A stretch of DNA of 64,000 nucleotides from a virus (IMGVR_UViG_3300025646_008465:12265-76264); one strand, 5' to 3'; shown: positions 6,968 through 52,400, counted from the stretch's first letter. Translations and numbers: made by a program. Notes: generated by a model not told the origin, from the sequence alone.

Positions 6968-7450
6968 TTAATCGGGATTTGACCAACCTTTATAAAAATC
7001 GGCTTCTCTTTTAGATTCGTCTTTTAAACCTTGTTGCATGTAGTTAACTATCATTTTAACCGTAGCTAAATTAATAGGTCTTTTCTTTAAACTCATATCA
7101 ATGTTACTTCTTCCTACTACACCAACATTATAATTCGGTTCAACTCCAAATAATTGAGCAATAGGTTCAATAGATCTACGATACCCACCAGCACTACTGA
7201 ATAGGTATTTACCATCTTCAACAGCAATTGAAAATCCTTGAGCACTTCTACTATTATAGAAACGATCACCTGGTTTACTATCTGGGTATACTCTTAATCT
7301 TATTTGATCACCATAGTTGTTAGGATCAGGTTCTACCATTACTCCTAAAACATCTATTAGTTTTTGAGCTTCTACTTCTGCCTCTGTTGGATCAACAGCT
7401 TCATGAAGTTTACCTTCAGCTAAATATTTTTTTAAATCAAAATTGCTCAT
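6968..7450 (-). CDS. hypothetical protein, possible internal head protein
   Basis: MSNFDLKKYLAEGKLHE leader; late motif at 7467-7474. Confidence 0.65.
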   Translation of the reverse strand: MSNFDLKKYLAEGKLHEAVDPTEAEVEAQKLIDVLGVMVEPDPNNYGDQIRLRVYPDSKPGDRFYNSRSAQGFSIAVEDGKYLFSSAGGYRRSIEPIAQLFGVEPNYNVGVVGRSNIDMSLKKRPINLATVKMIVNYMQQGLKDESKREADFYKGWSNPD

Positions 7451-7935
7451 TACGCTATATATTTGTTATAAATATGCTCAAAATCAATAAGAGGTATCCT
7501 ATGTCCCATTCCTTCGATTTCCTCAATATCACAATAAAATAAGGCATCATCAAGAATTTCTTTAGTAATTAAAGGATTAATAACATCATCTTCAAGACCT
7601 AAAATAACAACTGGTTGGAAATTAAAATTAGGTTCTCTAGCTTCTAATCTATCCAATTTAGGTTCTATTGAACGTGAGTGAATAGCAGGGTTAAAAGCAA
7701 CAACTGGGATATTGAAATAATTACCTAAAAGCAAAGCGGCATGACCACCCATACTAGAACCAATAATAACATCAGGTTTAAATGCTTGAACCATCTTCAT
7801 CAAATGTTTTTCAACATTAATATCTCGATAATCCATAGCAGGAGCAAAACAATCAGATACCTCGTGGAGGAAATCTACTTTACTGCTAGTATTAGAACTT
7901 TCTAAACCGTGTAAATATAAAACTCTTTTTCTCAT
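7450..7935 (-). CDS. YqiA/UPF0227-like alpha/beta hydrolase (esterase)
   Basis: YLHGLESS, GSSMGG nucleophile elbow, FNPA, DDVI, GH. Confidence 0.85.
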   Translation of the reverse strand: MRKRVLYLHGLESSNTSSKVDFLHEVSDCFAPAMDYRDINVEKHLMKMVQAFKPDVIIGSSMGGHAALLLGNYFNIPVVAFNPAIHSRSIEPKLDRLEAREPNFNFQPVVILGLEDDVINPLITKEILDDALFYCDIEEIEGMGHRIPLIDFEHIYNKYIA

Positions 7936-8010: not shown

Positions 8011-8277
8011 TTACTGTTGTACTCCCTCTAAGAATACTAAACCACCAGCAGCTTGAATAGCAGCTTTACCAGCAGCAAAATCAGCTTGTTCAGCTTGTAA
8101 TACTAAACCCATTACTTCAACACAATGTGTTTCATCTTCAGCTCCAAAAAAAGCAACACCAAAGTCACTATCTTCAGGAAAAGCAATAATGTATTTAGAG
8201 TCTACTACAGCTACTGATCCTTCAGTTTCAGGGGCTACTACAGAAATAGCTCCATTTTCTTTAATTACGTGTACCAT
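8011..8277 (-). CDS. hypothetical protein
   Basis: 88-aa ORF, last gene of the lysis/sensor run. Confidence 0.7.
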   Translation of the reverse strand: MVHVIKENGAISVVAPETEGSVAVVDSKYIIAFPEDSDFGVAFFGAEDETHCVEVMGLVLQAEQADFAAGKAAIQAAGGLVFLEGVQQ

Positions 8278-8278
8278 G

Positions 8279-9493
8279 TTAATAAGTTATTTGTTTATCG
8301 TTATTGTCTTTATTTTTTTTATCTTGTAACATTTTCCAGTAATTAAATCTAGCCATTTCTTCTTGATCTAATACACCGTTATTATTTGTATCAAATTGTT
8401 TCTTATAAATATCAAAAGGATCTTGTTCTTCTAATTCTTTTATTTGTTTTCGTTTTCTCCAACCTGAAATTGATGCTTCTTTGGTTTCTTGGATTTTTTC
8501 TTGTTTAAATTGATTTTCAATATCTGTTAAATCTTCATCTTCTAATTCTTCATCATCCCATTCTTCATCTTCTAAACCATCCATTAAAGTTGAATCCCAC
8601 TCTTTTAACTCATCTTCGGTGTAGATATCAGAACCCTCATTGTCAGATATAATTACCTTTTCACCATAGATATTTTCTTTGGTTTTAGAACGTAATTGTG
8701 CAAAAGCAAAGTTAGCAGCAATTACTAAAGCAATAGCTAAAGGATCAAATACAAAAATAATAATTAAAAGAAGTACATTGATAATTTTATCCATAGACAC
8801 CCCAGTTAATCCTGAAAGGTATTTAAGTGGGCCTAATTCTCCTGCTAAATTATTACCTGTTTTAATTTCTACAATTTCGGATTCGTAATCAAATAATTGA
8901 GTATTTAATTCATCTACTTTGCCATTCAATTCAGTTTGGCGAACAATAGCTTGATCTAATTGTTTTTCAAGTGCTTTACGGGTTGCAGAAGAAGTTGATT
9001 GAATTAATTGACCTTGTGCGTTTGTGTACGATATAACGTTGTTAGATAAACCTTTTCTTAAATCAGCAATGGCTTTATCGGTATTTTCTTTTTCAACGTT
9101 ATAAACGCTTAACTGTTTTTGGACATTATCTCTTTTAGTTTCAACTAATGCTACTTGAGCATCAATTGTTCCTGCTTTATTGGCTGTTTCTTGATAAGCA
9201 GCAGATAAAAAGCCATAAATACCCATTGAGGTAATTAAAATTAATACACCACAAGCAATTGTGAGGTATATTTTTAATACTTTAGGTAAGGTTTTACGAT
9301 ATTGGTATAACAAAGAAGCAATTACTAATTTAGCTACTTCTAATGAAGAAGCCATTATAATAACTGCAAAGGCAGCACCCGCAAAGAGTTTGCTAAGACC
9401 ACTAACTGAATAGAAAGCAGCCGAAGCACTTACTGACAGAGCGGAGAGTGCTATTAAAAACGGAAATATTCTTTCTTGTATTTTCTTTAACAT
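8279..9493 (-). CDS. multi-pass membrane protein with long coiled coil and C-terminal EF-hand-like loop
   Basis: Three N-terminal TM segments, about 120-aa coiled coil, FVFDPLAIAL TM region, acidic tail with DTNNNGVLDQEE; start moved to 9493. Confidence 0.75.
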   Translation of the reverse strand: MLKKIQERIFPFLIALSALSVSASAAFYSVSGLSKLFAGAAFAVIIMASSLEVAKLVIASLLYQYRKTLPKVLKIYLTIACGVLILITSMGIYGFLSAAYQETANKAGTIDAQVALVETKRDNVQKQLSVYNVEKENTDKAIADLRKGLSNNVISYTNAQGQLIQSTSSATRKALEKQLDQAIVRQTELNGKVDELNTQLFDYESEIVEIKTGNNLAGELGPLKYLSGLTGVSMDKIINVLLLIIIFVFDPLAIALVIAANFAFAQLRSKTKENIYGEKVIISDNEGSDIYTEDELKEWDSTLMDGLEDEEWDDEELEDEDLTDIENQFKQEKIQETKEASISGWRKRKQIKELEEQDPFDIYKKQFDTNNNGVLDQEEMARFNYWKMLQDKKNKDNNDKQITY

Positions 9494-9494
9494 T

Positions 9495-10091
9495 TTACTT
9501 ATCTTTTTCAGTGGCATATTTAACACCCATAATAGTACCTATAATACTAAAAGAGTTAGTTAAAAGTATACCAAATAAATTTGACCAAGTGGATTCCAAT
9601 ATAGGATTTTCTTTTCCGGCAACCAAGGTAAAGGCAAAAAGAAGTGTAGTAATTAAACCTACTCCTAAAATTACCCATAAAGCTACTGTAACTATTTTAC
9701 CGATAAGTTCAAATTGAGTTTTCTTTTGCATTAACTCTAAATCCTCTAATGCTTTGCCCATTCCTTTTTCTGCTTCTGCTCGTAACTTTTCAGCTTCCCA
9801 AGTAGCATTTTTTGCTTCTTCTAAAGCAGATTGAAGCTCTCCCATTAAAGTATCATTTTCTTCTTGTTTAGCAACTAATTCTTTATTTTGTTGTTGAACT
9901 TGTTTAGTGACGTCTAATCGTTTTCTGCGAATAGAGATATCTTTTTCTTTACATAATTGAAGGTAGTCCTCAAACTCTTTATCACCTTTAGGGGCTTTAA
10001 GAAGTTTAAGGAAATTACCTTCTACATAGATTTTTTTAGTTTTAGCAACCTCTAGTAGAACATTCCTAGTATGTTCTGTTACTTCAATCAT
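9495..10091 (-). CDS. coiled-coil protein with two C-terminal TM helices
   Basis: Heptad-rich middle region; IVTVALWVILGVGLITTLLFAF and LFGILLTNSFSIIGTIMGV; TAATG-coupled to the receiver gene. Confidence 0.75.
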   Translation of the reverse strand: MIEVTEHTRNVLLEVAKTKKIYVEGNFLKLLKAPKGDKEFEDYLQLCKEKDISIRRKRLDVTKQVQQQNKELVAKQEENDTLMGELQSALEEAKNATWEAEKLRAEAEKGMGKALEDLELMQKKTQFELIGKIVTVALWVILGVGLITTLLFAFTLVAGKENPILESTWSNLFGILLTNSFSIIGTIMGVKYATEKDK

Positions 10092-10528
10092 TATCTATAA
10101 ATTTTAAATGAAGCTGTTTTTGCTTTATAAGCATTATAGTCTTCCATAAACTCCATTAAACGAGGTTCAATATCATCAGACTTTATAATCCAAAACTGTG
10201 CTCCTACAGCTTTAGCTTTATTAATTTCTTCTTCATCCTCTGAAGAGGAAATGATTCCAATTACTACCCCGTCTCCATATTCGTAATTGATTTTTCTAAT
10301 CATTTCGATACCGTCCATAGAAGAACCTATAATATTTAAATCTACAAACACACATTCAGGACGTTCGTGGTTTGGATCATCAGGGAACCATTCTTTAAAT
10401 TTAGCATCAGCTTCATCAGAGCTATCTAAAGCTTCAATAGATAAAGCCATATCCAGAATTGAACATGCATCTTCAAATACTAGATGAAATAAATTTTCAT
10501 CGTCTATTAACATTAATGTGTTAATCAT
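10091..10528 (-). CDS. single-domain response regulator (receiver)
   Basis: LIDDE acidic pocket, VFVDLN phosphoacceptor, MDGIEM, ISSS, IIK; no output domain. Confidence 0.92.
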   Translation of the reverse strand: MINTLMLIDDENLFHLVFEDACSILDMALSIEALDSSDEADAKFKEWFPDDPNHERPECVFVDLNIIGSSMDGIEMIRKINYEYGDGVVIGIISSSEDEEEINKAKAVGAQFWIIKSDDIEPRLMEFMEDYNAYKAKTASFKIYR

Positions 10529-11781
10529 TAGTTTAATTTAATTTTTATTTTAGTACCTTCTTTAACTCTTCCTATAACTATTTCAAAGCCATGTTCCTTA
10601 AGAATTTCAATACAGATATTAAGTCCTAATCCTGTACCTTGTTCTTTTTGGCCTTCTTTTCTTGCATAAGGTTTAGAAAACTCCCAAAATTCTTTTGGAG
10701 TTAATCCACGTCCGTTGTCTTGTATACATATAAAATCTCCTTCAGAATATATTTTAACCCATTTAGTAGGAGCATCATTGTATTTAAGACCATTACGTAT
10801 TAAATTATCAATAGCTGTACAAAATAGTGCTTCATTTACCTGTAAATCTTTAGATAAATTCTTATCTAAAATAACTTGGTTTTTATAAGCTGTAAGGCGT
10901 AAATAATCCTCAAGAATGTTTTTTATATTACACTTAGTTACAGACATTTGAGCATTATTTTTTACTAAATTAGTAAATTCATAAACTCCAGAATATACTT
11001 TTTGGGTATGACTTAATCCATCCTCTATTAATTGTAGTGGAGATTGGATTCTTAATTCATTAATTTGTTCCTCTGTTAATCTTCTTTTTAACGATTTAAT
11101 ACCTCTAGGAATATAAGTATTAATCCCAGAATGCATATCATGTCTAATGATTTTAGCTGCGTGTTCTAAGTAAATACTTTTTTGTTTAACTTCTTCTTCA
11201 GCTTTATGTTGTGTTGTAACATCAACAGCTATTTTAAGTACTTTATGATATTCTCCTTTATCATTTTGTAAAGGAGTATACGTACCAAATAACCATACTG
11301 AGTGTCCATTTTTACCTATACGTTCAAATTCCCCAGAAACAAATTCTCCTTTACGTAATTTTTCCCAGAAAATTTTATATTCTTTACTTGATTTAAAATC
11401 AGCAGTACATAAATTAGAATGTTTGCCATTTAGTATTTCATTTTCTGAGTATCCTACTACATTAAGAAAATTTTGATTAGCTGATAATATAGTACCATCT
11501 ATTCCTAGAGTTACTATTAAATTAGAGTTATTAATTGCTTTTAGTTGGGTATCAATTTTAGCCTCTTTAATTTTAGTTTTATTGAAAAACTCTCTAACTA
11601 CTACAAAGAAAGGAGGCATAAATGATATAACAGATAGCCACTCAAAATAATGTGTAAATGTAGAATGATGAATGTACCTAAATACTACTAGTGTTTTAAA
11701 TACAAAAAACACTAGCATAATTAAAGTTGCTACAAGTAGACAGATTCTACTTCTTATAGATATACCTTCTAAAGCTGACAT
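10528..11781 (-). CDS. membrane PAS-domain sensor histidine kinase
   Basis: Two TM helices, PAS/PAC (ANQNFLNVVGYS...FWEKLRKGE...DVT), H-box IRHDMHS, N-box NLIRNGLKY, G1 DNGRGL, G2 GTGLGL. Confidence 0.93.
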   Translation of the reverse strand: MSALEGISIRSRICLLVATLIMLVFFVFKTLVVFRYIHHSTFTHYFEWLSVISFMPPFFVVVREFFNKTKIKEAKIDTQLKAINNSNLIVTLGIDGTILSANQNFLNVVGYSENEILNGKHSNLCTADFKSSKEYKIFWEKLRKGEFVSGEFERIGKNGHSVWLFGTYTPLQNDKGEYHKVLKIAVDVTTQHKAEEEVKQKSIYLEHAAKIIRHDMHSGINTYIPRGIKSLKRRLTEEQINELRIQSPLQLIEDGLSHTQKVYSGVYEFTNLVKNNAQMSVTKCNIKNILEDYLRLTAYKNQVILDKNLSKDLQVNEALFCTAIDNLIRNGLKYNDAPTKWVKIYSEGDFICIQDNGRGLTPKEFWEFSKPYARKEGQKEQGTGLGLNICIEILKEHGFEIVIGRVKEGTKIKIKLN

Positions 11782-11957
11782 TTCTTGAGACCAAGTTTTT
11801 CGAAGACCCATTTAGAGGGACAAAACTTGGTCCAAACACCAACATTAAGCATAACAATTACAAATAATATAACCCACCAATTTTGGAAAAGTGCCCCAGC
11901 AAATAATACTAAAGACATTAAAAGATAAACCGCTCTAATAGAAGTCCAATTTTTCAT
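11769..11957 (-). CDS. DUF2892/YgaP-like small membrane protein
   Basis: Two TM helices followed by FCP...KLG. Confidence 0.65.
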   Translation of the reverse strand: MKNWTSIRAVYLLMSLVLFAGALFQNWWVILFVIVMLNVGVWTKFCPSKWVFEKLGLKKCQL

Positions 11958-11959
11958 AA

Positions 11960-12073
11960 TTAATTCATTGAAATAGTTTGTATAAAAGCAACTTTAAGAC
12001 GAATCCAAACTCTATTCCAAAATGGAAGTGCTTTAAATTCATCAGTATTAAAAATATCTTCTAATTCTTTCAT
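11960..12073 (-). CDS. 37-aa protein (not in the ORF track)
   Basis: MKELEDIFNTDEFKALPFWNRVWIRLKVAFIQTISMN; TAATG-coupled to the amidase and fills the gap exactly. Confidence 0.6.
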   Translation of the reverse strand: MKELEDIFNTDEFKALPFWNRVWIRLKVAFIQTISMN

Positions 12074-12993
12074 TATAAACTTGTTAACATATCCATCAAT
12101 TCTTGTTGAGGGAACATATCAACTTTATCTTTACGAGTATTAGTATGAGTCCACAAACCTTTTACTTTTCCGTAATATGCATTTTCATTAAATTCAAAAG
12201 CATCAGCACCTTTTTCTTTAATTAAAGCAGGTAAACCAGCTCTTACATCAATACCATCTCTTTCAGCAATCCAAAGAATCCAATCTTTTAATACTTCAAT
12301 CTGTTTATCAGAATAACGATGCCATAATGAATGACCTCTGAATGGTTTAGCTAGTTTAACTATTTCAGAATCAGCTACTTTAGCACCAGCATAAGTTTTA
12401 CCATCTACAACATACCCAAAATTACATACTTCAATTCCTACTGAATTTTTATGCATTGTTTGGGATCCGTTTTTGCCTAAATGATATCCCCAATTTCCTT
12501 CTGGGAATGCTTGTACTAAAACACCATCATATTGGTTATCATCTCCTTTACATGAAGGGCCACCTAATACAAATTCAGTTGCAATTTTACCAATTTTATC
12601 AGCATCCCATGCTTTAATTGTATTGAATGGATTATGCCAACCTGCTGTGTGGTGTAAAAATAACCATTCTGCTTTAATAGGACCTGCTAAATACTCATCA
12701 GTAGGCATAAAATATTCAATTACTTCTAAACCATTTTTAGTAACATACTTATTTTTAGTATAAACCCCTGATTTTTTAGCTTCAGTAATTATTCGGGATA
12801 CATCGGTGTCTAATAAACCCATTTTTGATAATGTGCTAGGGCCTACGATACCATCAGCAGTTAATCCGTGAGCTGCTTGCCATTTTTTAACAGCAGCTTC
12901 AGTGCCGGGGCCGAAATCACCATCTGCTTTTACTCCAATTACTTCTTGGATATCTTTTACTAATTCTCCTTTAGAGCCAATTTTAATCAACAT
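12073..12993 (-). CDS. endolysin: PG-binding domain plus N-acetylmuramoyl-L-alanine amidase
   Basis: ADGDFGPGT/ADGIVGPST PG_binding_1 repeats; LHHTAG, SVGIEV, HTNTRKDKVD amidase_2 motifs; start moved to 12993. Confidence 0.9.
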   Translation of the reverse strand: MLIKIGSKGELVKDIQEVIGVKADGDFGPGTEAAVKKWQAAHGLTADGIVGPSTLSKMGLLDTDVSRIITEAKKSGVYTKNKYVTKNGLEVIEYFMPTDEYLAGPIKAEWLFLHHTAGWHNPFNTIKAWDADKIGKIATEFVLGGPSCKGDDNQYDGVLVQAFPEGNWGYHLGKNGSQTMHKNSVGIEVCNFGYVVDGKTYAGAKVADSEIVKLAKPFRGHSLWHRYSDKQIEVLKDWILWIAERDGIDVRAGLPALIKEKGADAFEFNENAYYGKVKGLWTHTNTRKDKVDMFPQQELMDMLTSL

Positions 12994-13207
12994 TTTCTTC
13001 TTTTTTAGATTTGGGAACAAATTTTTCAACAACAGTACCAAATACAGTTGCTATTGTTAAATATTCTACTGCTGCTACTGCTTCTTCTTTATGTACTTCA
13101 CTACAAGTAAATAAAAATACTACTAGTGAAAGAAAGCCAATGGTACCAAGCACACGTTTGTGCGAGGTACCTTCGTTATTGGCAAACATATTTTTAAAAA
13201 AATTCAT
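12983..13207 (-). CDS. small two-TM membrane protein, holin candidate
   Basis: SHKRV then two hydrophobic helices and a charged tail; directly upstream of the endolysin. Confidence 0.6.
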   Translation of the reverse strand: MNFFKNMFANNEGTSHKRVLGTIGFLSLVVFLFTCSEVHKEEAVAAVEYLTIATVFGTVVEKFVPKSKKEENVD

Positions 13208-13210
13208 GGT

Positions 13211-13372
13211 TTATTTTTTAATTAAAACAGACCACAAACCACCTACTAAAGTGATTAAAGCACCACTTAATTCAACAAAAGTGCTTTCATCTACTAAACC
13301 TTTGGCCACTAAAATACCACCTAAAAAGGTTAACGAGTGACGCAATACACCTAATACTTGTTCTTTATTCAT
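13211..13372 (-). CDS. small two-TM holin-like protein (53 aa, not in the ORF track)
   Basis: MNKEQVLGVLRHSLTFLGGILVAKGLVDESTFVELSGALITLVGGLWSVLIKK. Confidence 0.75.
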   Translation of the reverse strand: MNKEQVLGVLRHSLTFLGGILVAKGLVDESTFVELSGALITLVGGLWSVLIKK

Positions 13373-13395
13373 AATGTAAAAATTTAAATTGTGAT

Positions 13396-13403
13396 TATAA
13401 ATA
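13396..13403 (-). promoter_or_regulatory. putative late promoter TATTTATA of the lysis/sensor operon
   Basis: Recurrent motif, 24 nt upstream of the ATG and just downstream of a terminator. Confidence 0.7.
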
Positions 13404-13405
13404 TT

Positions 13406-13462: not shown

Positions 13463-13672
13463 TTATTTTAATAAACCTTTTACCCAAGATTTTACAATAT
13501 CCCAGTTACGAGTTGCAAATACACCAAACGCAAATCCAGCGTAAACTTTGTAACCAAAGGCCCATAAAAATAAACCTGCGATGAGGCCTAATACGCCTTC
13601 AATTCCATTTGCTACAATCCAATTTTTTACAATAGTAAAAATAGATTTGATAAAATTTAATACACTTTTCAT
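13463..13672 (-). CDS. small membrane protein
   Basis: Hydrophobic core with amphipathic ends; late motif at 13696-13703. Confidence 0.7.
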   Translation of the reverse strand: MKSVLNFIKSIFTIVKNWIVANGIEGVLGLIAGLFLWAFGYKVYAGFAFGVFATRNWDIVKSWVKGLLK

Positions 13673-13706
13673 AATAATTTAGTTTTGTTGTACGTTATAA
13701 ATATTA

Positions 13707-32169: not shown

Positions 32170-32194
32170 GTTTTAATCAGGTCAATGTATATGG

Positions 32195-41267: not shown

Positions 41268-44200
41268 TTATAAGTTCCAAGCAGGAACCCAATAATCAGT
41301 ACCTCCGATATTAAACACTAACCAACCATATGCTGTTAAACCTGTATTATCAGGAACTTGTGCATCTCTAAACCCGTTAATTGAAGGGATATTTGAGGCT
41401 GGAGTTGGGGTTGCAGAAGCTCCACCACCACCACTAGTACCAGATGTACCAGCTTTACCTGAAGTACCTGCAGTACCTGTTTTACCTGAAGTTCCACTTG
41501 TGCCTGAAGAACCTATAAATGAAGTACCATTTGTTCCTGATGCTCCTGAAGTACCTGCTGTACCATTTGAACCAGATGTACTTGAACCACCTGAATTACC
41601 ACCATTACCATTTGTACCGGAAGATCCAGCAGTTCCTGAAGTTGCACTTAATCCTGAGATACCGCTAGCTCCTGCGGCTCCAGTTGAGCCTGAAGTACCA
41701 CTTGTACCTGCTGTACCACTTCCTCCTCCTTTACCTGAAGTTCCGGTTGAACCACTTGTACCTGAAAGACCTGAAGTGCCGTTTGTTCCTCCTTTACCAC
41801 TTGTTCCTGAAGAACCTGAAGTAGCAGATTGACCTGAAAGACCATTAATACCTGAAGTACCTGTTGAGCCCGAAGTACCTGAAGTACCACTAGTTCCTGA
41901 GTTTCCTGAAGAACCTGATGTTCCGGATTTTCCTGAGGTGCCGTTTGCTCCATCTTTACCTGAAGTGCCACTTGAACCTGAAGTACCGCTTAGGCCTGAG
42001 GTGCCATTTGCTCCGTCTTTACCTGCAGTACCACTTGAACCTGAAGTACCGCTTAGGCCTGAGGTGCCGTTTGCTCCGTTTTTACCTGCGGTTCCACTTG
42101 AACCTGAAGTACCGCTTAGACCTGAAGTACCATCAGCTCCTACTTTACCGGAGGTTCCTGATGAACCAGAAGTTGCACTTAAAGCTGCTAAACCAGCAAT
42201 ACCACTTGTACCTGTAGAACCTGAAGTACCTGAGGTGCCTGAAGTGCCACTGCCTCCTCCTTTACCAGCAGTTCCAGTTGAACCGCTTGTACCTGAAAGA
42301 CCTGAAGTGCCACTTGCTCCATCTTTACCGCTGGTACCTGATGAACCACTAGTTCCTGAAGTGCCTGAAGTACCACTTCCTCCTCCTTTACCTGCGGTTC
42401 CACTTGAACCTGAGGTACCTGATAAACCTGAAGTACCGTTTGCTCCATCTTTACCCGAAGTACCGCTAGAACCTGAGGTACCTGAAAGACCTGAAGTGCC
42501 GTTTGTGCCGGATGTACCTGCAGTTCCTGAAGTTGCACTTAATCCTGAGATACCGCTAGCTCCTGCAGCTCCAGTTGAACCTGAAGTACCTGCAGTACCT
42601 GAAGTACCTGTTTTACCTGCGGTTCCTGTTGAACCACTAGTTCCAGATAAACCTGAAGTACCATTTGTTCCTCCTTTACCTGAGGTGCCTGAAGAACCAG
42701 AAGTTGCACTTTGGCCTGATAATCCAGCTATGCCACTAGTTCCAGTAGAACCTGCGGTACCTGAGGTTCCACTTGTTCCACTATTTCCTGAAGAACCTGA
42801 TGTTCCTGATTTTCCTGAGGTACCATTTGTCCCATCTTTACCTGAAGTACCGCTAGAACCCGAGGTACCTGAAAGACCTGAAGTACCACTAGTTCCGTCT
42901 TTACCTGAGGTTCCAGTTGAACCGCTTGTACCTGATAAACCTGAAGTACCATTTGTTCCTCCTTTACCTGCAGTTCCTGTTGAACCACTAGTTCCAGATA
43001 AACCTGAAGTACCATTAGCTCCATTTGAACCTGAAGAACCTGTAGTTCCTGATGTAGATGATTGACCTGATAAACCAGCAATACCTGAAGTACCTGTAGA
43101 TCCAGCTGTGCCCGAAGTACCGCTTGTTCCACTATTTCCTGATGAACCTGATGTTCCTGATTTTCCTGAGGTACCGCTAGTTCCGTCTTTACCTGAGGTT
43201 CCGGCTGAACCTGAAGTGCCTGATAAACCTGAAGTACCACTAGTTCCATCTTTACCGCTAGTACCAGTTGAACCACTTGTTCCTGAAAGACCTGAGGTGC
43301 CACTAGTTCCAGAATTTCCTGAAGAACCACTTGTACCTGAAAGGCCTGAAGTACCGTTTGTTCCTCCTTTACCACTTGTTCCTGAAGAACCTGAAGTAGC
43401 TGATTGGCCTGATAGTCCTGCTATACCACTGGTTCCAGTAGAACCTGCGGTACCTGAAGTTCCTGAAGTACCGGATTGTCCTGTAGAACCTGAAGAGCCT
43501 GTAGTTCCTGAAGTGCCTGATTTGCCACTAGTTCCTCCAGCTCCATTTGAACCTGATGAACCTGTAGTTCCTGATGTAGAAGATTGACCTCCTAAACCTG
43601 CAATACCACTTGTACCTGTAGATCCAGCTGTGCCACTAGTACCACTAGTTCCAGATTGTCCTGAAGAACCTGATGTACCTGCTTTACCACTAGTTCCATT
43701 AGCTCCGTTTGAACCTGAGGAACCAGTACTACCTGAAGTGCCACTTGTAGCACTTTGACCTGATAGTCCTGCTATACCACTAGTTCCAGTTGAACCTGCA
43801 GTGCCTGAAGTACCCGAAGTATTTCCTTGTCCTGAAGAGCCTACAGAACCTGAAGTACCTGATGTACCTGCTTTACCACTAGTTCCATTAGCTCCATTTG
43901 AACCTGAAGAACCTGTAGTTCCTGATGTAGATGATTGGCCTGATAATCCTGCAATACCACTTGTGCCTGTAGATCCAGCTGTACCTGAAGTACCTGAAGT
44001 ACCAGATTGTCCTGAAGAACCTGATGTACCTGCTTTACCACTAGTTCCATTAGCTCCATTTGAACCTGAGGATCCAGTAGAACCACTAGTTCCTGAAGTT
44101 CGTGATTGGCCTGAAAGACCATCGATACCTGAAGTACCTGTTGAACCTGCTGTGCCTGAAGTGCCACTTGTTCCACTATTTCCTGAAGAACCTGAAGTAC

Positions 44201-45671
44201 CTGATTTACCGCTTGTACCATTAGCCCCATTTGAACCTGAAGAACCTGTAGTACCTGAAGTACCACTTGTAGCACTTTGACCTGATAGTCCTGCTATACC
44301 ACTAGTTCCAGTTGAACCCGCAGTACCTGAAGTGCCTGAAGTGCCTGATTGACCTGAAGAACCTGATGTTCCGGATTTTCCTGAAGTTCCATTGGCTCCG
44401 TTTGAACCAGAAGAACCAGTACTACCGGAAGTACCTGAAGTTCTAGATTGACCTGATAAACCATCTATGCCACTTGTTCCTGTAGAACCACTTGTTCCAC
44501 TAGTACCACTTGTTCCGCTATTTCCTGAAGAACCTGAAGTGCCGGCTTTACCACTAGTTCCATTAGCTCCATTTGAACCTGATGAACCTGTAGAACCACT
44601 AGTACCTGAAGTTTTTGAAGCTCCACTTAAACCATCAATACCAGAGGTACCTGTTGAACCCGCAGTACCTGAAGTGCCCGAAGTATTAGAACTTCCGGAT
44701 GAACCTGAAGTACCTGATTTTCCTGAAGTACCATCAGCTCCATTTGTACCTGAAGAGCCAGTTGAACCACTAGTACCTGAAGTTCTAGATTGACCTGAAA
44801 GACCATCAATACCGCTAGTACCTGTAGATCCGGAAGTACCTGAAGTACCTGAGGTATGAGATGAACCTGAAGAACCAGATGAGCCAGATTTTCCTGAAGT
44901 ACCAGTTGAACCTGAAGAACCTGAAGAACCTGAAGTTTTTGAAGCTCCACTTAAACCATCTATACCTGAGGTACCTGTAGATCCAGCTGTGCCTGAAGTA
45001 CCTGAAGTGTTTGATGAACCCGAAGAACCGGCAGTACCTGATTTACCACTTGTTCCATTAGCTCCATTTGAACCTGAAGAACCTGTAGAACCACTAGTTC
45101 CTGAAGTAGCACTTTGACCTGATAAACCTGCTATACCTCCAGTACCTGTAGAACCTGATGTACCACTTGTACCTGAAGTACCATGTGAACCTCCAGATGT
45201 ACCTGAAGTGCCTGATTTGCCTGAGGTACCACTAGCTCCCACAGTTCCTGAAGTACCTGTAGAACCTGATGTTCCTGCAGTACCTGAAGTACCTGTTGTA
45301 CCACTAGTACCTGAAGTGTTAGATTGACCACCAGCTCCTGTAGAACCTGATGAACCTGATGTAGTTGAAGCACCTTGTGAACCTGAAGTACCTGATTTTC
45401 CTCCTGTACCTGAGGTACCTGATTTTCCATTTGTACCTGAAGTGCCTGATGTTCCTGAGGTTACAGCACCTCCTGAAGAACCTGAAGTACCGTTAGAACC
45501 AGCTCCACCACCACCTGAATAGATAACAGATATTACACGTCCGTCATCATCTACAGCTAAAACTCTGTCAGCAGTAGACCCTGAGGGTACGCTCAATAAA
45601 AACAGGTCTTGTTTGAAAACCGATTGACCTGGGCTATCTCGTCTACTGGAGAATTTTCTGTTTTCAGCCAT
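41268..45671 (-). CDS. Gly/Ser/Thr tripeptide-repeat virion fibre protein (1467 aa)
   Basis: About 1360 aa of G-X-S triplets between short unique ends; C-terminus YGWLVFNIGGTDYWVPAW; late-like motif at 45697-45704. Confidence 0.85.
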   Translation of the reverse strand: MAENRKFSSRRDSPGQSVFKQDLFLLSVPSGSTADRVLAVDDDGRVISVIYSGGGGAGSNGTSGSSGGAVTSGTSGTSGTNGKSGTSGTGGKSGTSGSQGASTTSGSSGSTGAGGQSNTSGTSGTTGTSGTAGTSGSTGTSGTVGASGTSGKSGTSGTSGGSHGTSGTSGTSGSTGTGGIAGLSGQSATSGTSGSTGSSGSNGANGTSGKSGTAGSSGSSNTSGTSGTAGSTGTSGIDGLSGASKTSGSSGSSGSTGTSGKSGSSGSSGSSHTSGTSGTSGSTGTSGIDGLSGQSRTSGTSGSTGSSGTNGADGTSGKSGTSGSSGSSNTSGTSGTAGSTGTSGIDGLSGASKTSGTSGSTGSSGSNGANGTSGKAGTSGSSGNSGTSGTSGTSGSTGTSGIDGLSGQSRTSGTSGSTGSSGSNGANGTSGKSGTSGSSGQSGTSGTSGTAGSTGTSGIAGLSGQSATSGTSGTTGSSGSNGANGTSGKSGTSGSSGNSGTSGTSGTAGSTGTSGIDGLSGQSRTSGTSGSTGSSGSNGANGTSGKAGTSGSSGQSGTSGTSGTAGSTGTSGIAGLSGQSSTSGTTGSSGSNGANGTSGKAGTSGTSGSVGSSGQGNTSGTSGTAGSTGTSGIAGLSGQSATSGTSGSTGSSGSNGANGTSGKAGTSGSSGQSGTSGTSGTAGSTGTSGIAGLGGQSSTSGTTGSSGSNGAGGTSGKSGTSGTTGSSGSTGQSGTSGTSGTAGSTGTSGIAGLSGQSATSGSSGTSGKGGTNGTSGLSGTSGSSGNSGTSGTSGLSGTSGSTGTSGKDGTSGTSGLSGTSGSAGTSGKDGTSGTSGKSGTSGSSGNSGTSGTSGTAGSTGTSGIAGLSGQSSTSGTTGSSGSNGANGTSGLSGTSGSTGTAGKGGTNGTSGLSGTSGSTGTSGKDGTSGTSGLSGTSGSSGTSGKDGTNGTSGKSGTSGSSGNSGTSGTSGTAGSTGTSGIAGLSGQSATSGSSGTSGKGGTNGTSGLSGTSGSTGTAGKTGTSGTAGTSGSTGAAGASGISGLSATSGTAGTSGTNGTSGLSGTSGSSGTSGKDGANGTSGLSGTSGSSGTAGKGGGSGTSGTSGTSGSSGTSGKDGASGTSGLSGTSGSTGTAGKGGGSGTSGTSGTSGSTGTSGIAGLAALSATSGSSGTSGKVGADGTSGLSGTSGSSGTAGKNGANGTSGLSGTSGSSGTAGKDGANGTSGLSGTSGSSGTSGKDGANGTSGKSGTSGSSGNSGTSGTSGTSGSTGTSGINGLSGQSATSGSSGTSGKGGTNGTSGLSGTSGSTGTSGKGGGSGTAGTSGTSGSTGAAGASGISGLSATSGTAGSSGTNGNGGNSGGSSTSGSNGTAGTSGASGTNGTSFIGSSGTSGTSGKTGTAGTSGKAGTSGTSGGGGASATPTPASNIPSINGFRDAQVPDNTGLTAYGWLVFNIGGTDYWVPAWNL
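41420..45515 (-). repeat. coding 9-bp-period repeat (GGT ACT TCA)n
   Basis: Degenerate tandem CCTGAAGTA units on the + strand. Confidence 0.95.
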
Positions 45672-46484: not shown

Positions 46485-49400
46485 TTATAAGGTTATCCAA
46501 GTTACATCTGGTTGGAACCATATACATTTTACTGCTGATGTATTATCAACTACCCATCCTACACCTCTAACTCTATCTCCTGTAGTAAATCCACTAGTAT
46601 CGTCTGTTACTTGTCCATCAATATCACTTACCCATAAAGAATCACCTATATTAGTAGCACTAGTTACTTCCTCTGTAGTTATCATACCTTGAATAAATAC
46701 ATCAACTTCTTCATCAGCTCCACCTGTACCATTTAATACAATTCCTAGTAACTTTTCAGCACTTACACCACCAGCATTTGCGGGTCTCCATCTACCTGTA
46801 GAGAAATTATACCACACTAATTGTCCTTTAGAAAGAGAGGTATCACTAACCGCTCCTGTTAATACATGACCTTGATAAAGGAAATCACCTATACCTTGTA
46901 TATTACCCCATTGTTGATAAGTTGTATGTCCAGGGAATGGAGCAGTATATGAAGAAACAATACTATTAATATCAGTATCACCTACTAAAAGGAAACCTTT
47001 GCTTTGGTCAAAATTAAAGTTAGGACTGCTAGTACTTCCTAAACCAGAACCTCTAATATCTCCTTCAACATAAAGTATTCTATTAGGTTTATCTATACTT
47101 AAGAATTCTGCACTTTGAGCTAAAGTACTAGAAGAACCTGTAGAATATAATAGATGGTCTGGTGAATATGACCAAGTACCTCCACTAATACCACTAGTAC
47201 CATTAAATGATACTCCTGAAGTTGCTGCGGTACCATTTGTACCTGAAGTACCATTTTTACCTGAAGTACCACTTGTCCGTGTTAAACCGCTTGTACCGGC
47301 AGTACCACTTGTTCCTGAAGTGAATGAAGATGATCCACTAGTACCGTTTGTACCATTTTTACCTGAAGTACCACTGGTTCCATTAGTTGCACTTTGTCCT
47401 GAGGTACCAGCTGTGCCGCTTGTTCCCGAAGTGAATGAAGATGATCCACTAGTACCATTAGTACCATTCCGTCCTGAAGTACCTGAAGTGCCTGAAGTAC
47501 CTGATTTGCCACTTGTTCCACTAGTACCTGAAGTACCTGAGGTAAATGAAGATGATCCACTAGTACCGTTAGTACCATTCCGTCCTGAAGTACCTGCTGT
47601 ACCACTTGTACCTGAAGTACCGGCTTTACCACTTGTTCCACTTGTACCTGAAGTACCTGAGGTAAATGAAGATAAACCGCTTGTACCATTAGTACCATTC
47701 CGTCCTGAAGTACCACTTGTACCGCTAGTTCCACTTAATCCTGAAGTACCTGAAGTGCCTGAAGTGCCTGAAGTAAATGAAGATAAACCACTTGTAGCGC
47801 TTGTACCATTTTTACCTGAAGTACCACTTGTACCGCTAGTTCCACTTAATCCTGAAGTACCTGAAGTACCGTTTGTTCCTGAAGTAAATGAAGATAAACC
47901 GCTTGTACCGTTTGTACCGTTCCGTCCTGAAGTGCCTGAAGTGCCTGAAGTGCCTGAAGTGCCTGAAACACCACTTGTACCTGAAGTACCAGTTGTACCT
48001 GAAGTAGTACTTAAACCTGATAAACCAGCAGCTCCATCTAAACCTGCTGTACCTGAAGTACCTGATGATCCGGCTGTTCCTGAAGTCCGGCTTAACCCGC
48101 TTTGTCCGTGGGTTCCTGAAGCACCTGTAGTACCTGAAGTACCATTTGTACCTGAAGTCCGGCTAGCACCACTTTGTCCGTTAGTTCCTGAAGCACCTGT
48201 AGTACCACTTGTTCCTGTAGTACCACTTGTTCCTGAAGCTCCTGAAGTACGTGAAGCTCCATTTGCTCCGTTTGTACCTGAAGTACCTGTTGAACCGCTA
48301 GTGCTTGAAACTCCTGAAGTCCGTGAAGCACCGTTTGCTCCGTTTGTACCTGAAGTACCACTTGATCCTGAAGTTCCAGATACATTTGAAGCGCCACTAT
48401 TTCCTGCAGTACCTGAAGCACCTGTAGTACCTGATGTGCCTGTTGTTCCTGAAGTCCGGCTTAAACCTGATCCTCCGGCATTACCATTAGCACCTGAAGT
48501 ACCATTTGTACCTGAAGTACCTGAAGTACCTGAAGTCCGGCTTAAACCTGATCCCCCAGCATTACCACTAGTACCTGTATTTCCTGAAGTACCTGAGGTA
48601 CCTGTTGTACCTGATGTACCTGATGTTCTACTTAATCCTGAAGCTCCAGCATTACCACTAGTACCAGTAGCACCTGTAGTACCTGAAGTACCTGCTGTTC
48701 CTGAAGTCCGGCTTAAACCTGATTGACCTGCAACACCTGCAGCTCCTGTTGTACCATTTGAACCATTAGTACCTGAAGTCTGGCTAATACCTGATTGACC
48801 CGCAACTCCTGCGGCTCCAGTAGTACCTGAAGAACCTTGAGTTCCTGAGGTTTGGCTTAAACCACTTTGTCCATTAGTTCCTGAAGCACCTGTAGTACCT
48901 GAAGTACCTGTTGTACCTGAAGTGCCACTAGCTCCTGAGGTTCTTGAAGCACCATTAGCTCCATTTGTACCTGATGTACCTGAGCTACCACTTGTACCTG
49001 AGGTCCGGCTTAAAGCTGAAGCTCCTGTAGTACCATTTGCTCCTGAAGTACCTGAAGTACCTGAACTACCTGAAGTAGCACTTAATGCTGAAGCACCTAC
49101 AGTTCCGGCATTACCACTTGTACCTGAGGTACCAGTTGTACCTGAGGTCCGGCTTAAACCACTTTGACCTGCAACTCCTGAAGCACCTGTAGTACCATTT
49201 GAACCATTAGTACCTGAAGTCTGGCTTAGACCTGATTGACCTGCTGTTCCGTTTGCACCTGTAGTACCATTAGATCCTGTAGTTCCTGAAGTTCCACTAA
49301 CACCACTTGTACGTGAAGCACCGTTTGCTCCGTTTGTACCTGAAGTACCTGAGCTACCGCTTGTACCTGAAGTTTGGCTGAGAGCAGAAGCACCTACAGT

Positions 49401-52400
49401 TCCATTATTTCCTGAAGTACCTGAAGTACCTGTTGTTCCTGAAGTTCCTGATACTCCTGAAGTCCGTGAAGCGCCATTTGCACCTACAGTACCATTTGTA
49501 CCAGTTGAACCGCTTGTTCCTGAAGTTTTAGAAGCACCTGAATCACCTGAAGCACCATCAACACCAGCTGTACCTGAGGTACCTGATGATCCGGCTGTTC
49601 CTGAAGTAGCACTTAATGCTGAAGCTCCTGTAGTACCAGCAGCACCTGTAGTACCACTTGTACCAGTAGTTCCTGAGGTTTTACTTAAACCTGATTGGCC
49701 TGCGTTTCCAGCATTACCTGTAGTACCGCTTGAACCTTGAGTTCCTGAAGTTGCGCTTAAACCACTTTGACCTGCAGTTCCATTAGCACCTGTAGTACCG
49801 TTTGTACCAGTTGAACCTGAAGTTCCTGATACTCCTGAAGTCCGTGAAGCGCCATTGGCTCCGTTTGTACCACTTGTACCTGAAGAACCTGATGTTCCTG
49901 AAGTCCGGCTTAAAGCAGAAGCGCCTACAGTTCCATTTGCTCCTGATGTACCTGAAGTTCCTGTTGAACCTGAAGTACCACTTAAAGCAGAAGCACCTAC
50001 AGTTCCGGCATTACCACTTGTACCTGAGGTACCAGTTGTTCCCGAGGTTTTACTTAAACCTGATTGACCAGCATTACCTGCGTTTCCTGTAGTACCGCTT
50101 GAACCTTGAGTTCCTGAGGTAGCACTTAAACCTGATTGACCTGCTGTTCCGTTTGCTCCAGTTGTACCATTTGTACCTGCTGAGCCACTTGTACCTGAAG
50201 TGCTACTAGCACCTGAAGTTCTTGAAGCGCCGTTTGCACCTGAAGTACCTGAAGTACCTGTTGAACCTGAAGTACCACTCAATGCAGAAGCACCTACTGT
50301 TCCATTATTACCACTTGTACCAGAAGTACCAGTAGAACCACTAGTTCCACTTAATGCAGAAGCACCTACTGTACCTGCATTTCCTGAAGTACCTGAAGTA
50401 CCTGTTGTTCCTGAAGTCCGGCTTAAACCTGATTGGCCTGCGTTTCCAGCATTACCCGTAGTACCTGAAGAACCTTGAGTTCCTGAGGTAGCACTTAAAC
50501 CTGAATTTCCAGCTGTTCCATTAGCACCTGTAGTACCTGCTGAACCTGTAGTTCCTGAGGTTCCTGATACTCCTGAAGTCCGTGAAGCGCCATTTGCACC
50601 TGAAGTACCTGAAGTACCTGTACTACCTGATGTACCACTTAACGCAGAAGCACCGTTTGTACCCGTATTACCTGATGTACCGCTTGTTCCTGTAGAACCG
50701 CTCGTACCTGATTGGCCTGATGTTCTAGACGCACCACTAGCGCCTACAGTACCTGAAGTACCTGATGAACCGCTAGTACCTGATGTTGCACTATCTGCAG
50801 ATTGACCTGTAGTTCCATTGTTACCAGATGTACCTGAAGTACCTGTGGTACCTGAAGTCCGGCTTAGACCTGATTGGCCTGCTACACCATTTGCACCTGT
50901 AGTACCGTTTGAACCGTTAGTACCTGAAGTAGTACTTAAACCACTTTTTCCGGCAGTTCCATTTACACCTGTAGTACCTGAAGATCCTGTAGTACCGCTT
51001 GTACCACTTTCAGCTGATAATCCAGAAGTACCATTAGCACCTGTAGTGCCATTTGTACCAGTTGAACCTGAAGTTCCTGAAACACCTGAAGTTCTTGAAG
51101 CACCATTAGCTCCAACTGTACCATTTGTACCGGTTGAACCACTAGTACCTGAAGTTGCACTTAAGTTAGATTGGCCTGCTACTCCAGCTGAACCTGTAGT
51201 ACCTGAAGTACCGGCTGTTCCTGAAGTAGAGCTTAAATTAGATTGACCTGCTATTCCAGCTGAACCTGTAGTACCTGAAGTACCAGCTGTTCCTGAAGTT
51301 TGGCTTAAACCACTTTGACCTGCGGTTCCATTAGCACCTGTTGTACCTGCTGAACCTGTAGTACCTGAAGTTGAGGATACACCACTAGTACCTGCAATAC
51401 CATTCTTTCCAGAAGTACCGTTTGTGCCAGTTGAACCTGAAGTTCCTGAAACACCACTTGTGCGTGAAGCTCCATCAGCACCTACTGTACCTGAGGTACC
51501 TGATGAACCACTTGTTCCTGAAGTTGCACTATTATTTGATAAACCAGCTGTACCTGCATTACCACTTGTACCTGAAGAACCTGTAGTACCACTTGTAGTA
51601 CTTAAACCTGATTTACCAGCAGTACCATTTGCACCCGTAGTACCAGATGAACCTGTAGTACCTGAAGTACCACTTAATGCTGAAGCACCTACAGTTCCAT
51701 TTTCTCCTGAAGTACCTGAGGTTCCTGTTGAACCTGAAGTACCACTTAGGGCAGAAGCACCTACAGTTCCATTATTTCCTGAAGTACCGCTTGTACCAGT
51801 TGAACCACTAGTTCCACTAACACCACTTGTACGTGAAGCACCATTAGCTCCAACTGTACCGTTTGTACCTGAAGAACCTGAAGTTCCTGAAGTTGCACTA
51901 TTATTTGATTGACCTGCTACTCCTACAGAACCTGTTGTACCTGAAGTACCTGAAGTACCTGAAGTAGCTGATTGATTTGATTGACCTGCGTTTCCGGTTG
52001 AACCTGTAGTACCTGAAGTACCGGCTGTTCCTGAAGTTGCACTTAAACCTGAGTTTCCAGCAGTTCCATTGGCACCAGTTGTACCCGCAGATCCAGTTGT
52101 TCCTGAGGTTGAAGATACACCACTAGTACCTGCAATTCCATCTTTACCGCTTGTACCATTTGTACCAGTTGAACCTGAAGTTCCTGAAACTCCCGAAGTT
52201 CTTGAAGCTCCGTTTGCACCCACAGTACCATTTGTACCAGTTGAACCTGAAGTACCTGAAGTAGCTGATTGGTTAGATTGGCCTGCTACTCCAGCTGAAC
52301 CTGTTGTACCAGTAGTACCTGAAGTACCAGAAGTTCCACTCGTTCCTGAACCTGGGTCTTCACCATTTCCAGTTATACCTGATGAACCCTGAGTTCCTGA

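Follow-up and report, generated by a model that had tools for sequence, protein, structure and literature searches.

Lysis cassettes of uncultured phages encode a putative phosphorelay with a membrane hairpin as its predicted output

We analysed a 64,000-nucleotide (nt) stretch of viral DNA (IMGVR_UViG_3300025646_008465:12265-76264), referred to here as the window, which corresponds to the final 64 kb of one contig of 76,264 bp. Our subject is a lysis cassette at positions 8011-13403, in which genes for a sensor histidine kinase, a response regulator (receiver) and a coiled-coil membrane protein lie downstream of holin and endolysin genes. The window has a G+C content of ~33%, and every sizeable gene in it lies on the minus strand, as do all features of the window given below. 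Genes for a tail sheath, a tail tube, collagen-like fibres and an adaptor-like protein indicate that the source is an uncultured myophage. Its nearest cultured phage is Flavobacterium phage vB_FspM_immuto (53% identity in the sheath), and the host is probably a member of the Bacteroidota; a CHU_C type IX secretion signal, encoded in a gene neighbouring the cassette of one relative, fits such a host. All eleven open reading frames (ORFs) of a preliminary description of this DNA were recovered in place. Genes of the run overlap or sit a few bases apart, with intergenic gaps of no more than ~7 nt, so that the gap-free passage from lysis to signalling genes in that description holds. Its other two statements on the architecture of the run were also confirmed. 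An exact copy of a late-type promoter motif, AATATTTATAA, heads the cassette at 13395-13405, 23 nt upstream of the holin ATG and directly after an intrinsic terminator at 13432-13407 (11-bp stem with six GC pairs, T run). The only other terminator-like hairpin in this stretch, at 7990-7962 (13-bp stem), closes the unit, and there is none between the two.

The kinase gene (10528-11811) encodes 427 amino acids (aa), with a likely start at M11 (11781). The protein comprises two transmembrane (TM) helices separated by a loop of ~14 residues, a PAS domain at residues ~90-200, a dimerisation and histidine phosphotransfer (DHp) domain containing H224, and a catalytic and ATP-binding (CA) domain; Pfam matches were to PAS_3/PAS_9 and HATPase_c (E 1.5e-12), and no HisKA domain was called by Pfam in this protein. 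When phmmer was run against the PDB, residues 224-420 aligned with HK853 (2c2a/3dge), with H224, which sits in IIRHDMHSGINTY, falling on position 29 of 2c2a, equal to His260, the phospho-acceptor of HK853. In an alignment of 20 diverse relatives, H224, N336/N340 of the N box, D365xGxG of the G1 box (D365-N-G-R-G) and G392xGxG of the G2 box (G392-T-G-L-G-L) were all invariant. The H box, together with the GHKL-type N, G1 and G2 boxes, places the predicted protein among the HisKA-type (class I) kinases.

The next gene (10091-10528) encodes a single-domain response regulator of 145 aa (Response_reg, 34.5 bits against a cut-off of 30.2) with a C-terminal extension of ~25 residues and no second (output) domain. 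Residues D9, D10, D63, S94-96 and K116 were invariant among 24 sequences, in agreement with the earlier statement that the phosphorylation residues of kinase and receiver are intact. The AlphaFold2 model (predicted local distance difference test score (pLDDT) 90, predicted template modelling score 0.84) consists of five beta-alpha units plus an extra C-terminal helix and strand, and Foldseek matched it with probability 1.0 to CheY4, RcpA, Rcp1 and bacteriophytochrome response regulators. The ratio of non-synonymous to synonymous substitution was ~0.08 in unsaturated pairs, with synonymous sites saturated in 36 of 45 pairs. Judged from sequence comparison, the kinase core, the receiver and the hairpin protein described next are intact and under purifying selection. 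Natural kinase-receiver fusions exist and support cognate pairing of the two proteins, with phosphotransfer predicted between them.

The third signalling gene (9495-10091) encodes cc198, a coiled-coil protein of 198 aa with two TM helices that has no match to a known family and would be the output of the relay. In its model (pLDDT 80), a small N-terminal domain is followed by one helix at residues 38-158 that runs into TM1, a tight turn and TM2, the last of which bears an invariant polar, glycine-rich motif (STWSN..GILLTN.FSI.GTIMG.K). The length of the coiled coil differs by up to ~45 residues among relatives. Besides its two TM helices, its short charged tail and its place in the lysis cassette, cc198 has an atypical cytoplasmic part of ~125 residues. 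The family was virus-only in the protein atlas (unnamed virus clusters), in a genome scan and in a profile search. We also considered cc198 as a spanin and rejected this, since the long soluble part is Arg/Lys-rich and lacks a signal peptide, and so should be cytoplasmic. The cc198-type N-terminal domain and first coiled-coil stretch were also seen at the start of three HisKA/HATPase_c kinases of 337-349 aa (P0368, P0389 and P0391), whose H box is a different, ordinary one (SHNLRxPL). No kinases of this kind were found in IMG/VR, and the three may be cellular; their architecture suggests that the N-terminal domain of cc198 could be a general signalling input module.

Kinase, receiver and cc198 genes occurred together and in the same order in 79 of 79 IMG/VR loci wherever the contig reached, as well as in four contigs from metagenome-assembled genomes (MAGs) and nine further viral loci. 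Most junctions within the module overlap by 1-4 nt. Relatives of the kinase form more than 5,000 clusters at 90% identity and those of the receiver ~3,800, some on contigs of 140-190 kb, and marine, estuarine and freshwater viromes contain the relay family in great abundance. When one genome from each of 185,579 species was scanned, cc198 appeared only in the four MAG contigs, which are assigned to four unrelated phyla and each carry the full trio; these are likely mis-binned phage DNA. On one of the MAG contigs (L085:2502-5534), tandem kinases, one with and one without a PAS domain, are followed by one receiver gene and one hairpin gene.

Searching with a profile built on the cc198 alignment, we retrieved proteins whose C-terminal half corresponds to the coiled coil and hairpin of cc198 and whose N-terminal part is a GAF domain (P0273), two PAS domains (P0296), a PAS domain of the window's type (P0299) or one of a second type (P0284). 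The three sensor types on these hairpin fusions are the same as those on the kinases. At least 80 such fusion loci are present in IMG/VR, and 0 of 80 contain a receiver or kinase core. Conversely, every locus encoding a cc198 with its own N-terminal domain also has a receiver gene, where the contig reaches. Such a distribution is expected if this N-terminal domain is the docking site of the receiver and the PAS or GAF domains are its substitutes. In loci L153-L160, the gene order is RNRb, RNRa (90% identical to that of the window), PAS-PAS-hairpin, a small 2-TM protein, GH19, holin_4_1 and mem415, a membrane protein that also follows cc198 in the window. The slot taken by the PAS-PAS-hairpin gene holds, in the window's lineage, the genes for a 37-aa ORF (o37), a 62-aa membrane protein (TM62), the kinase, the receiver and cc198. 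From this order and the identity of RNRa it follows that, in close relatives, a single protein stands in place of the three-protein relay at this site of the cassette. Because PAS and GAF domains are naturally fused straight to the hairpin beside lysins, the prediction that the hairpin is the effector, and that the output is therefore a membrane protein rather than DNA binding, is well supported. The same fusions favour the proposal of the preliminary description that the output acts at the protein level through a membrane partner.

We also considered whether the receiver mainly targets host proteins, as a decoy, a phosphate sink or a CheY-like binder, with cc198 serving only as a neighbour or anchor. 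Single-domain receivers such as CheY and DivK commonly act by protein contact, and the receiver is far better conserved than its neighbours, with a mean column identity of 87% compared to 54% for cc198; its identity stays at 79-88% even where that of RNR falls to 30-39%. Such conservation would fit a conserved surface, possibly one facing the host. However, close relatives replace kinase, receiver and cc198 jointly by one sensor-hairpin protein in the same slot, which points to the hairpin rather than a host target as the common end point, and a cc198 with its own N-terminal domain was never seen without the receiver. We therefore regard host proteins as an improbable main target, and consider the hairpin the better candidate for the end point of the relay.

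The relay usually adjoins lysin genes, drawn from at least five different families. Amidase_2, a PHROG endolysin family, GH19 and Peptidase_M15 are among them; genes of the DUF5675, M23 and weak CHAP/NlpC types also adjoin it and were counted as putative lysins only. These genes lie upstream, downstream or on the opposite strand. In 34 loci, a Phage_holin_4_1 gene lies within the module itself, between o37 and TM62. By cluster labels alone, a lysin or holin was found within 2.5 kb in 51 of 69 assessable loci, and later Pfam calls revealed peptidoglycan-hydrolase-type genes beside 10 of the other 18. At the fusion loci, an M15, GH19 or related lysin lies within 1 kb in 76 of 80 cases, at a median distance of 37.5 nt. 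The wider context varies by lineage, the module being found after RNR, giant structural genes or glycosyltransferases, with lysis genes still adjacent. The survey of synteny called for in the preliminary description thus found the module usually beside lysis genes, and the view that lysis cassettes throughout a very large group of uncultured phages stably include the relay appears well supported.

Collectively, these observations lead us to propose, with a probability of about 0.5, that the locus encodes a phage phosphorelay that has a virus-only membrane hairpin as its output and works inside the lysis cassette. Several results weigh against this proposal. First, cc198 matched no holin or antiholin family in Pfam or PHROG and nothing in the PDB, and a Foldseek search with its model returned nothing below E 3 (no solved fold). 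Second, binding of the receiver to cc198 is predicted from gene order and from the presence/absence pattern described above, and no receiver-cc198 fusions were found, only kinase-receiver fusions. Third, about eight loci with full flanks have no recognised lysin nearby (L016/44/47/77, L041, L045, L069 and L074), four of which carry a 194-aa single-TM protein that is also seen in other lysis cassettes. Fourth, the preliminary description placed the relay in one operon with the lysin. The arrangement in the window fits this; in its nearest relatives (L005, L006, L018 and L040) the lysin and the gene upstream of it (TM74) form a block that comes after cc198 and has its own late motif, so that adjacency is conserved and a single operon with the lysin is not. 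Many loci are, moreover, near-duplicates or close relatives, and the counts given above overstate the number of independent events; adjacency to lysis genes may in part be inherited synteny and not selected. Finally, a tblastn search with the kinase against 50,697 phage records returned only weak PAS matches in unrelated records and no cultured phage with the module, and phage immuto has no such relay. The relay would therefore be accessory to lysis and not required for it.

The absence from the nearest cultured phage would suit a mobile accessory cassette (moron) that inserts into a variable region next to the lysis genes without contributing to the lytic programme, as would the varying genome position of the module described above and the mosaic nature of the kinase. 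Against this stand the strong purifying selection on the module, the thousands of 90%-identity clusters in metagenomes, the late-type promoter motifs directly upstream and the fact that lysis genes still adjoin the module after it has moved. We consider a moron very unlikely. A further explanation is that hairpin and relay serve some other late membrane task, such as superinfection exclusion, membrane energisation or an envelope process, and lie near lysis genes through clustering of membrane genes. The cassettes are indeed full of membrane proteins of unassigned role (TM69, TM74, TM62, mem415, c16tm and c53), mem415 homologues are not always near lysins (that of Xoo-sp13 is beside the clamp loader), and the missing holin or antiholin match of cc198 could be read in the same way. 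However, the fused PAS-hairpin gene usually begins or ends only ~11-40 nt from a lysin gene, a holin gene is inserted within the module in the 34 loci mentioned, and adjacency persists when the lysin is replaced by members of several unrelated families, when side or strand changes and when the wider context differs. Another membrane task thus seems unlikely to us, and we continue with the proposal that the relay serves lysis.

The input of the relay is exchangeable. Of 79 kinases, 45 have no PAS domain (~300 aa, with TM2 running nearly straight into the DHp domain), 28 have one PAS domain of either of two unrelated types and six have GAF plus PAS; one lineage has no TM helices. The PAS-less kinases, with two TM helices and an outer linker of less than ~25 residues, fit an intramembrane-sensing input, and the kinase of the window has the same TM pair plus a cytoplasmic PAS domain. 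Segments of the kinase also reassort. The kinase of L006 is 87% identical to that of the window in the TM part, 20% in the PAS domain and 95% in the kinase core, and the corresponding values for L008 are 53%, 78% and 75%. The PAS domain of the window is nearest to flavin-binding PAS domains (MmoS 3ewk, E 2.9e-10; Aer 8dik, 4.8e-6; LOV, 1.7e-5) and may sense redox state or oxygen. The preliminary description had compared it to Aer/BdlA-like redox or oxygen sensors; the support for this lies in the sequence similarity to MmoS and Aer, and as an account of the defining sensor it does not hold. Since 45 of 79 kinases have no PAS domain and the others have different PAS domains or GAF plus PAS, a redox-sensing PAS domain would at best be specific to this phage, and the common input of the family must, on this reasoning, lie in the membrane part of the kinase. 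A PAS domain as the conserved sensor of the family was accordingly rejected, most relatives being without one. LOV-type photosensing was rejected as well, because inspection by eye found no Cys at the LOV position of the window's PAS domain. Two sequence types of the TM pair were seen, and their reassortment is independent of that of the PAS domain. In the first, three cysteines are conserved within or close to the short outer loop (QTCIVFGLCEPS...GWGCV); the window's kinase (residues 11-80) is of the second, in which histidines take their place (RYIHHSTFTHYFEW).

Perhaps the membrane input is shared with TM62, a 2-TM protein of 62 aa encoded at 11769-11957, which we regard as a candidate co-sensor of the kinase. 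TM62 is found in 66 loci, immediately 5' of the kinase in 62 of them, with most junctions at -1 to +3 nt, and it contains a conserved FCPSKW motif. The DUF2892-like character ascribed to it earlier is reflected in a weak match to YgaP-like_TM/DUF2892, which at E 0.015 is sub-threshold.

If the proposal is correct, the kinase would read the state of the membrane or cytoplasm via its TM helices, perhaps with TM62, and via PAS where present, and would autophosphorylate on H224. The phosphate would pass to D63 of the receiver, and the phosphorylated receiver would dock on the small N-terminal domain of cc198. The signal would then run down the coiled coil to the TM hairpin, which would alter the mode or timing of holin-dependent inner-membrane permeabilisation, either as a regulated antiholin or holin partner or by forming a gated pore. 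Lysis would thereby be timed according to the state of the host, through either delay or triggering. The phage thus probably ties lysis to a sensed signal; that the relay controls the timing of lysis is what we infer. A more specific version, in which cc198 itself is a signal-gated holin or pinholin, with its assembly under the control of the phosphorylated receiver here and of a PAS or GAF ligand in relatives, is one that we put forward tentatively and would rather doubt.

The lysis genes of the window lie at the head of the run. Two holin-like ORFs had been described, and the first of these, of 53 aa (13211-13372), can be assigned to Phage_holin_10 (PF23987; E 8.3e-16, 58 bits against a cut-off of 27); a curated family match, small size, TM segments and a position beside the endolysin all fit a holin. 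The second, TM74 (74 aa, 12983-13207), matched no family and is holin-like only by its size, TM segments and position; it lies directly upstream of the lysin, whichever the type, in 33 related loci, and the late motif directly precedes it in 17. The endolysin ORF (12073-12993) is longest when read from a TTG at 13041. Its likely start is the ATG at 12993, and alignments to relatives begin at residue 17 of the longest ORF. The product contains PG_binding_1 (2.6e-13) and Amidase_2 (27.7 bits against a cut-off of 26, a borderline score) and also matches nine PHROG endolysin families and one amidase family, which is consistent with assignment to the Amidase_2 class of endolysins. It is followed by o37 (11960-12073), a conserved ORF of 37 aa that matches no family and has an amphipathic, W/R-rich C-terminal half. 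Each of the 48 related loci in which o37 was found has it upstream of TM62 or of the inserted holin.

Downstream of cc198, mem415 (415 aa, 8279-9517; the ORF extends to 9526, with the likely start at 9517) encodes several TM segments, a coiled coil, a further TM segment and an acidic tail, and has no match to a known family. The tail contains an EF-hand-like loop, DTNNNGVLDQEE, at residues ~376-394 (~8345-8401), for which the Pfam EF-hand match was sub-threshold. In 14 related loci mem415 comes after cc198 or after a lysin or holin. The mem415 family is virus-only and spans large phages of very different hosts, including Flavobacterium immuto, Pelagibacter Mosig, Microcystis Mel-JY01, Xanthomonas Xoo-sp13/XacN1 and Ralstonia RsoM2USA; the homologue is near lysis genes in immuto and Mosig and beside the clamp loader in Xoo-sp13, and a search of the protein atlas returned unnamed virus clusters only. 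The final gene before the terminator is an ORF of 88 aa (8011-8277) with no family and no relatives among the loci examined. Just beyond the terminator, 7450-7935 encodes a 161-aa UPF0227 protein (YqiA-like alpha/beta hydrolase), homologues of which come after mem415 in several relatives. Another recurrent family, c53 (~195 aa, one N-terminal TM helix, no Pfam or PHROG match; L016:10281-10865, L093:4780-5373, L142:4383-4994), is found beside lysins and, in loci without a recognised lysin, directly after cc198; it could be an unrecognised lysis component, for example a spanin-like protein or a signal-anchored lysin.

Allowing at most one mismatch, AATATTTATAA has 17 matches in the window compared to 8.6 expected, a number reached by no shuffle, and 14 of the 17 are on the coding strand. 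Exact copies lie at 13395, 13695, 28301, 33898, 35651 and 60270, and one-mismatch copies at 32194, 41248 and 45696. The tail sheath, tail tube, fibre and adaptor genes are preceded, at a distance of ~34 nt, by exact or near-exact copies, and in relatives the late motif is found before TM74, o37 or the kinase. It is reasonable to regard AATATTTATAA as a candidate late promoter element of this phage group. The exact copy at 13695-13705 lies upstream of TM69 (13463-13672), a small membrane protein of 69 aa without a family match, which forms a separate short unit ending at the terminator 13432-13407 and whose homologues head the cassette in six related loci. Elsewhere in the window, two giant ORFs, 41268-45671 (1467 aa) and 46485-57614 (3709 aa), have a G+C content of 44-48% compared to ~33% for the genome, and the 1467-aa ORF gave many repeated matches to collagen-like tail fibre families.

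Lysis timing sets phage fitness. To our knowledge, it has so far been known to depend on holin clocks, on antiholin isoforms and, in T4 and N4, on lysis inhibition by direct protein binding. A phage two-component relay, with one-component equivalents, that feeds a dedicated membrane effector of the lysis cassette would, if our proposal is true, be a new way to couple bursting to a sensed condition. Should cc198 be a gated holin, very abundant aquatic phages would choose the time of lysis from the redox, energy or membrane state of the host, using a signalling pathway dedicated to it. Given its abundance, the family could affect the timing of carbon release from infected hosts, which are probably Bacteroidota. 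The exchangeable sensors (none, two PAS types or GAF) on a constant output offer a natural series for identifying the sensed signal, and the parts of the relay are small and suited to heterologous hosts.

A search of full-text literature on phage-encoded two-component systems and on lysis control by histidine kinases found nothing relevant, which is no proof that no such report exists. The closest phage precedent is lysis inhibition in T4, where holin T is held by the antiholins RI, in the periplasm, and RIII, in the cytoplasm (PMC8385771, PMC11413866). As we propose here, phage proteins belonging to the lysis programme respond to a sensed condition by restraining or freeing the holin post-translationally, which affects the timing of lysis. 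In T4, by contrast, the proteins bind one another directly and neither kinase, receiver nor phosphotransfer is involved, and RI senses in the periplasm, whereas the cassettes described here encode a TM, PAS or GAF module and a coiled-coil 2-TM hairpin. No protein of the cassette had a PHROG or Pfam match that would indicate homology to RI, RIII or holin T.

The LytSR system of staphylococci, which governs the holin/antiholin-like CidAB and LrgAB and whose kinase has been linked to membrane electrical potential (PMC4830213), likewise couples a membrane-embedded histidine kinase to holin-like membrane proteins, which control the access of murein hydrolases and lysis; a coupling of this kind is proposed in our case. 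LytSR, however, is a cellular system that acts on transcription, LytR containing a LytTR DNA-binding domain and LytS a multi-TM 5TM-Lyt sensor and a His_kinase (PF06580) core. The relay described here is viral, its receiver lacks an output domain and its kinase core is HisKA/HK853-like; Pfam scans of the kinase and receiver found no 5TM-Lyt, His_kinase or LytTR domain.

Taken by themselves, the kinase and receiver are ordinary members of their superfamilies, and it is the arrangement, the effector and the viral setting that are undescribed in the literature we found. Like CheY, Rcp1/RcpA and DivK, the receiver stands alone, has the full set of phosphorylation residues and finds its best structural matches in this group. 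It differs from CheY-type regulators in its predicted virus-only membrane partner, in the Ser that follows K116 in place of the usual Pro and in a C-terminal extension ending in an extra strand. Among kinases, LiaS and BceS are intramembrane-sensing, small or partner membrane proteins (LiaF, BceAB) can be the real sensors, and DesK-type proteins link TM helices directly to the DHp domain. The phage kinases resemble these in their two TM helices, ~14-residue outer loop and, in the PAS-less majority, the near-direct passage of TM2 into the DHp domain, and TM62, encoded just upstream, could be the real sensor in the manner of LiaF or BceAB. They differ in that the DHp domain is HisKA-like and not HisKA_3, that there is no HAMP domain and that the kinase of the window has a cytoplasmic PAS domain. 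The PAS- and GAF-hairpin proteins resemble one-component sensors with membrane outputs, in which a cytoplasmic ligand-binding domain is joined straight to an effector. What sets them apart is the predicted effector, which is neither an enzyme nor a DNA-binding domain but an uncharacterised TM hairpin encoded within a phage lysis cassette.

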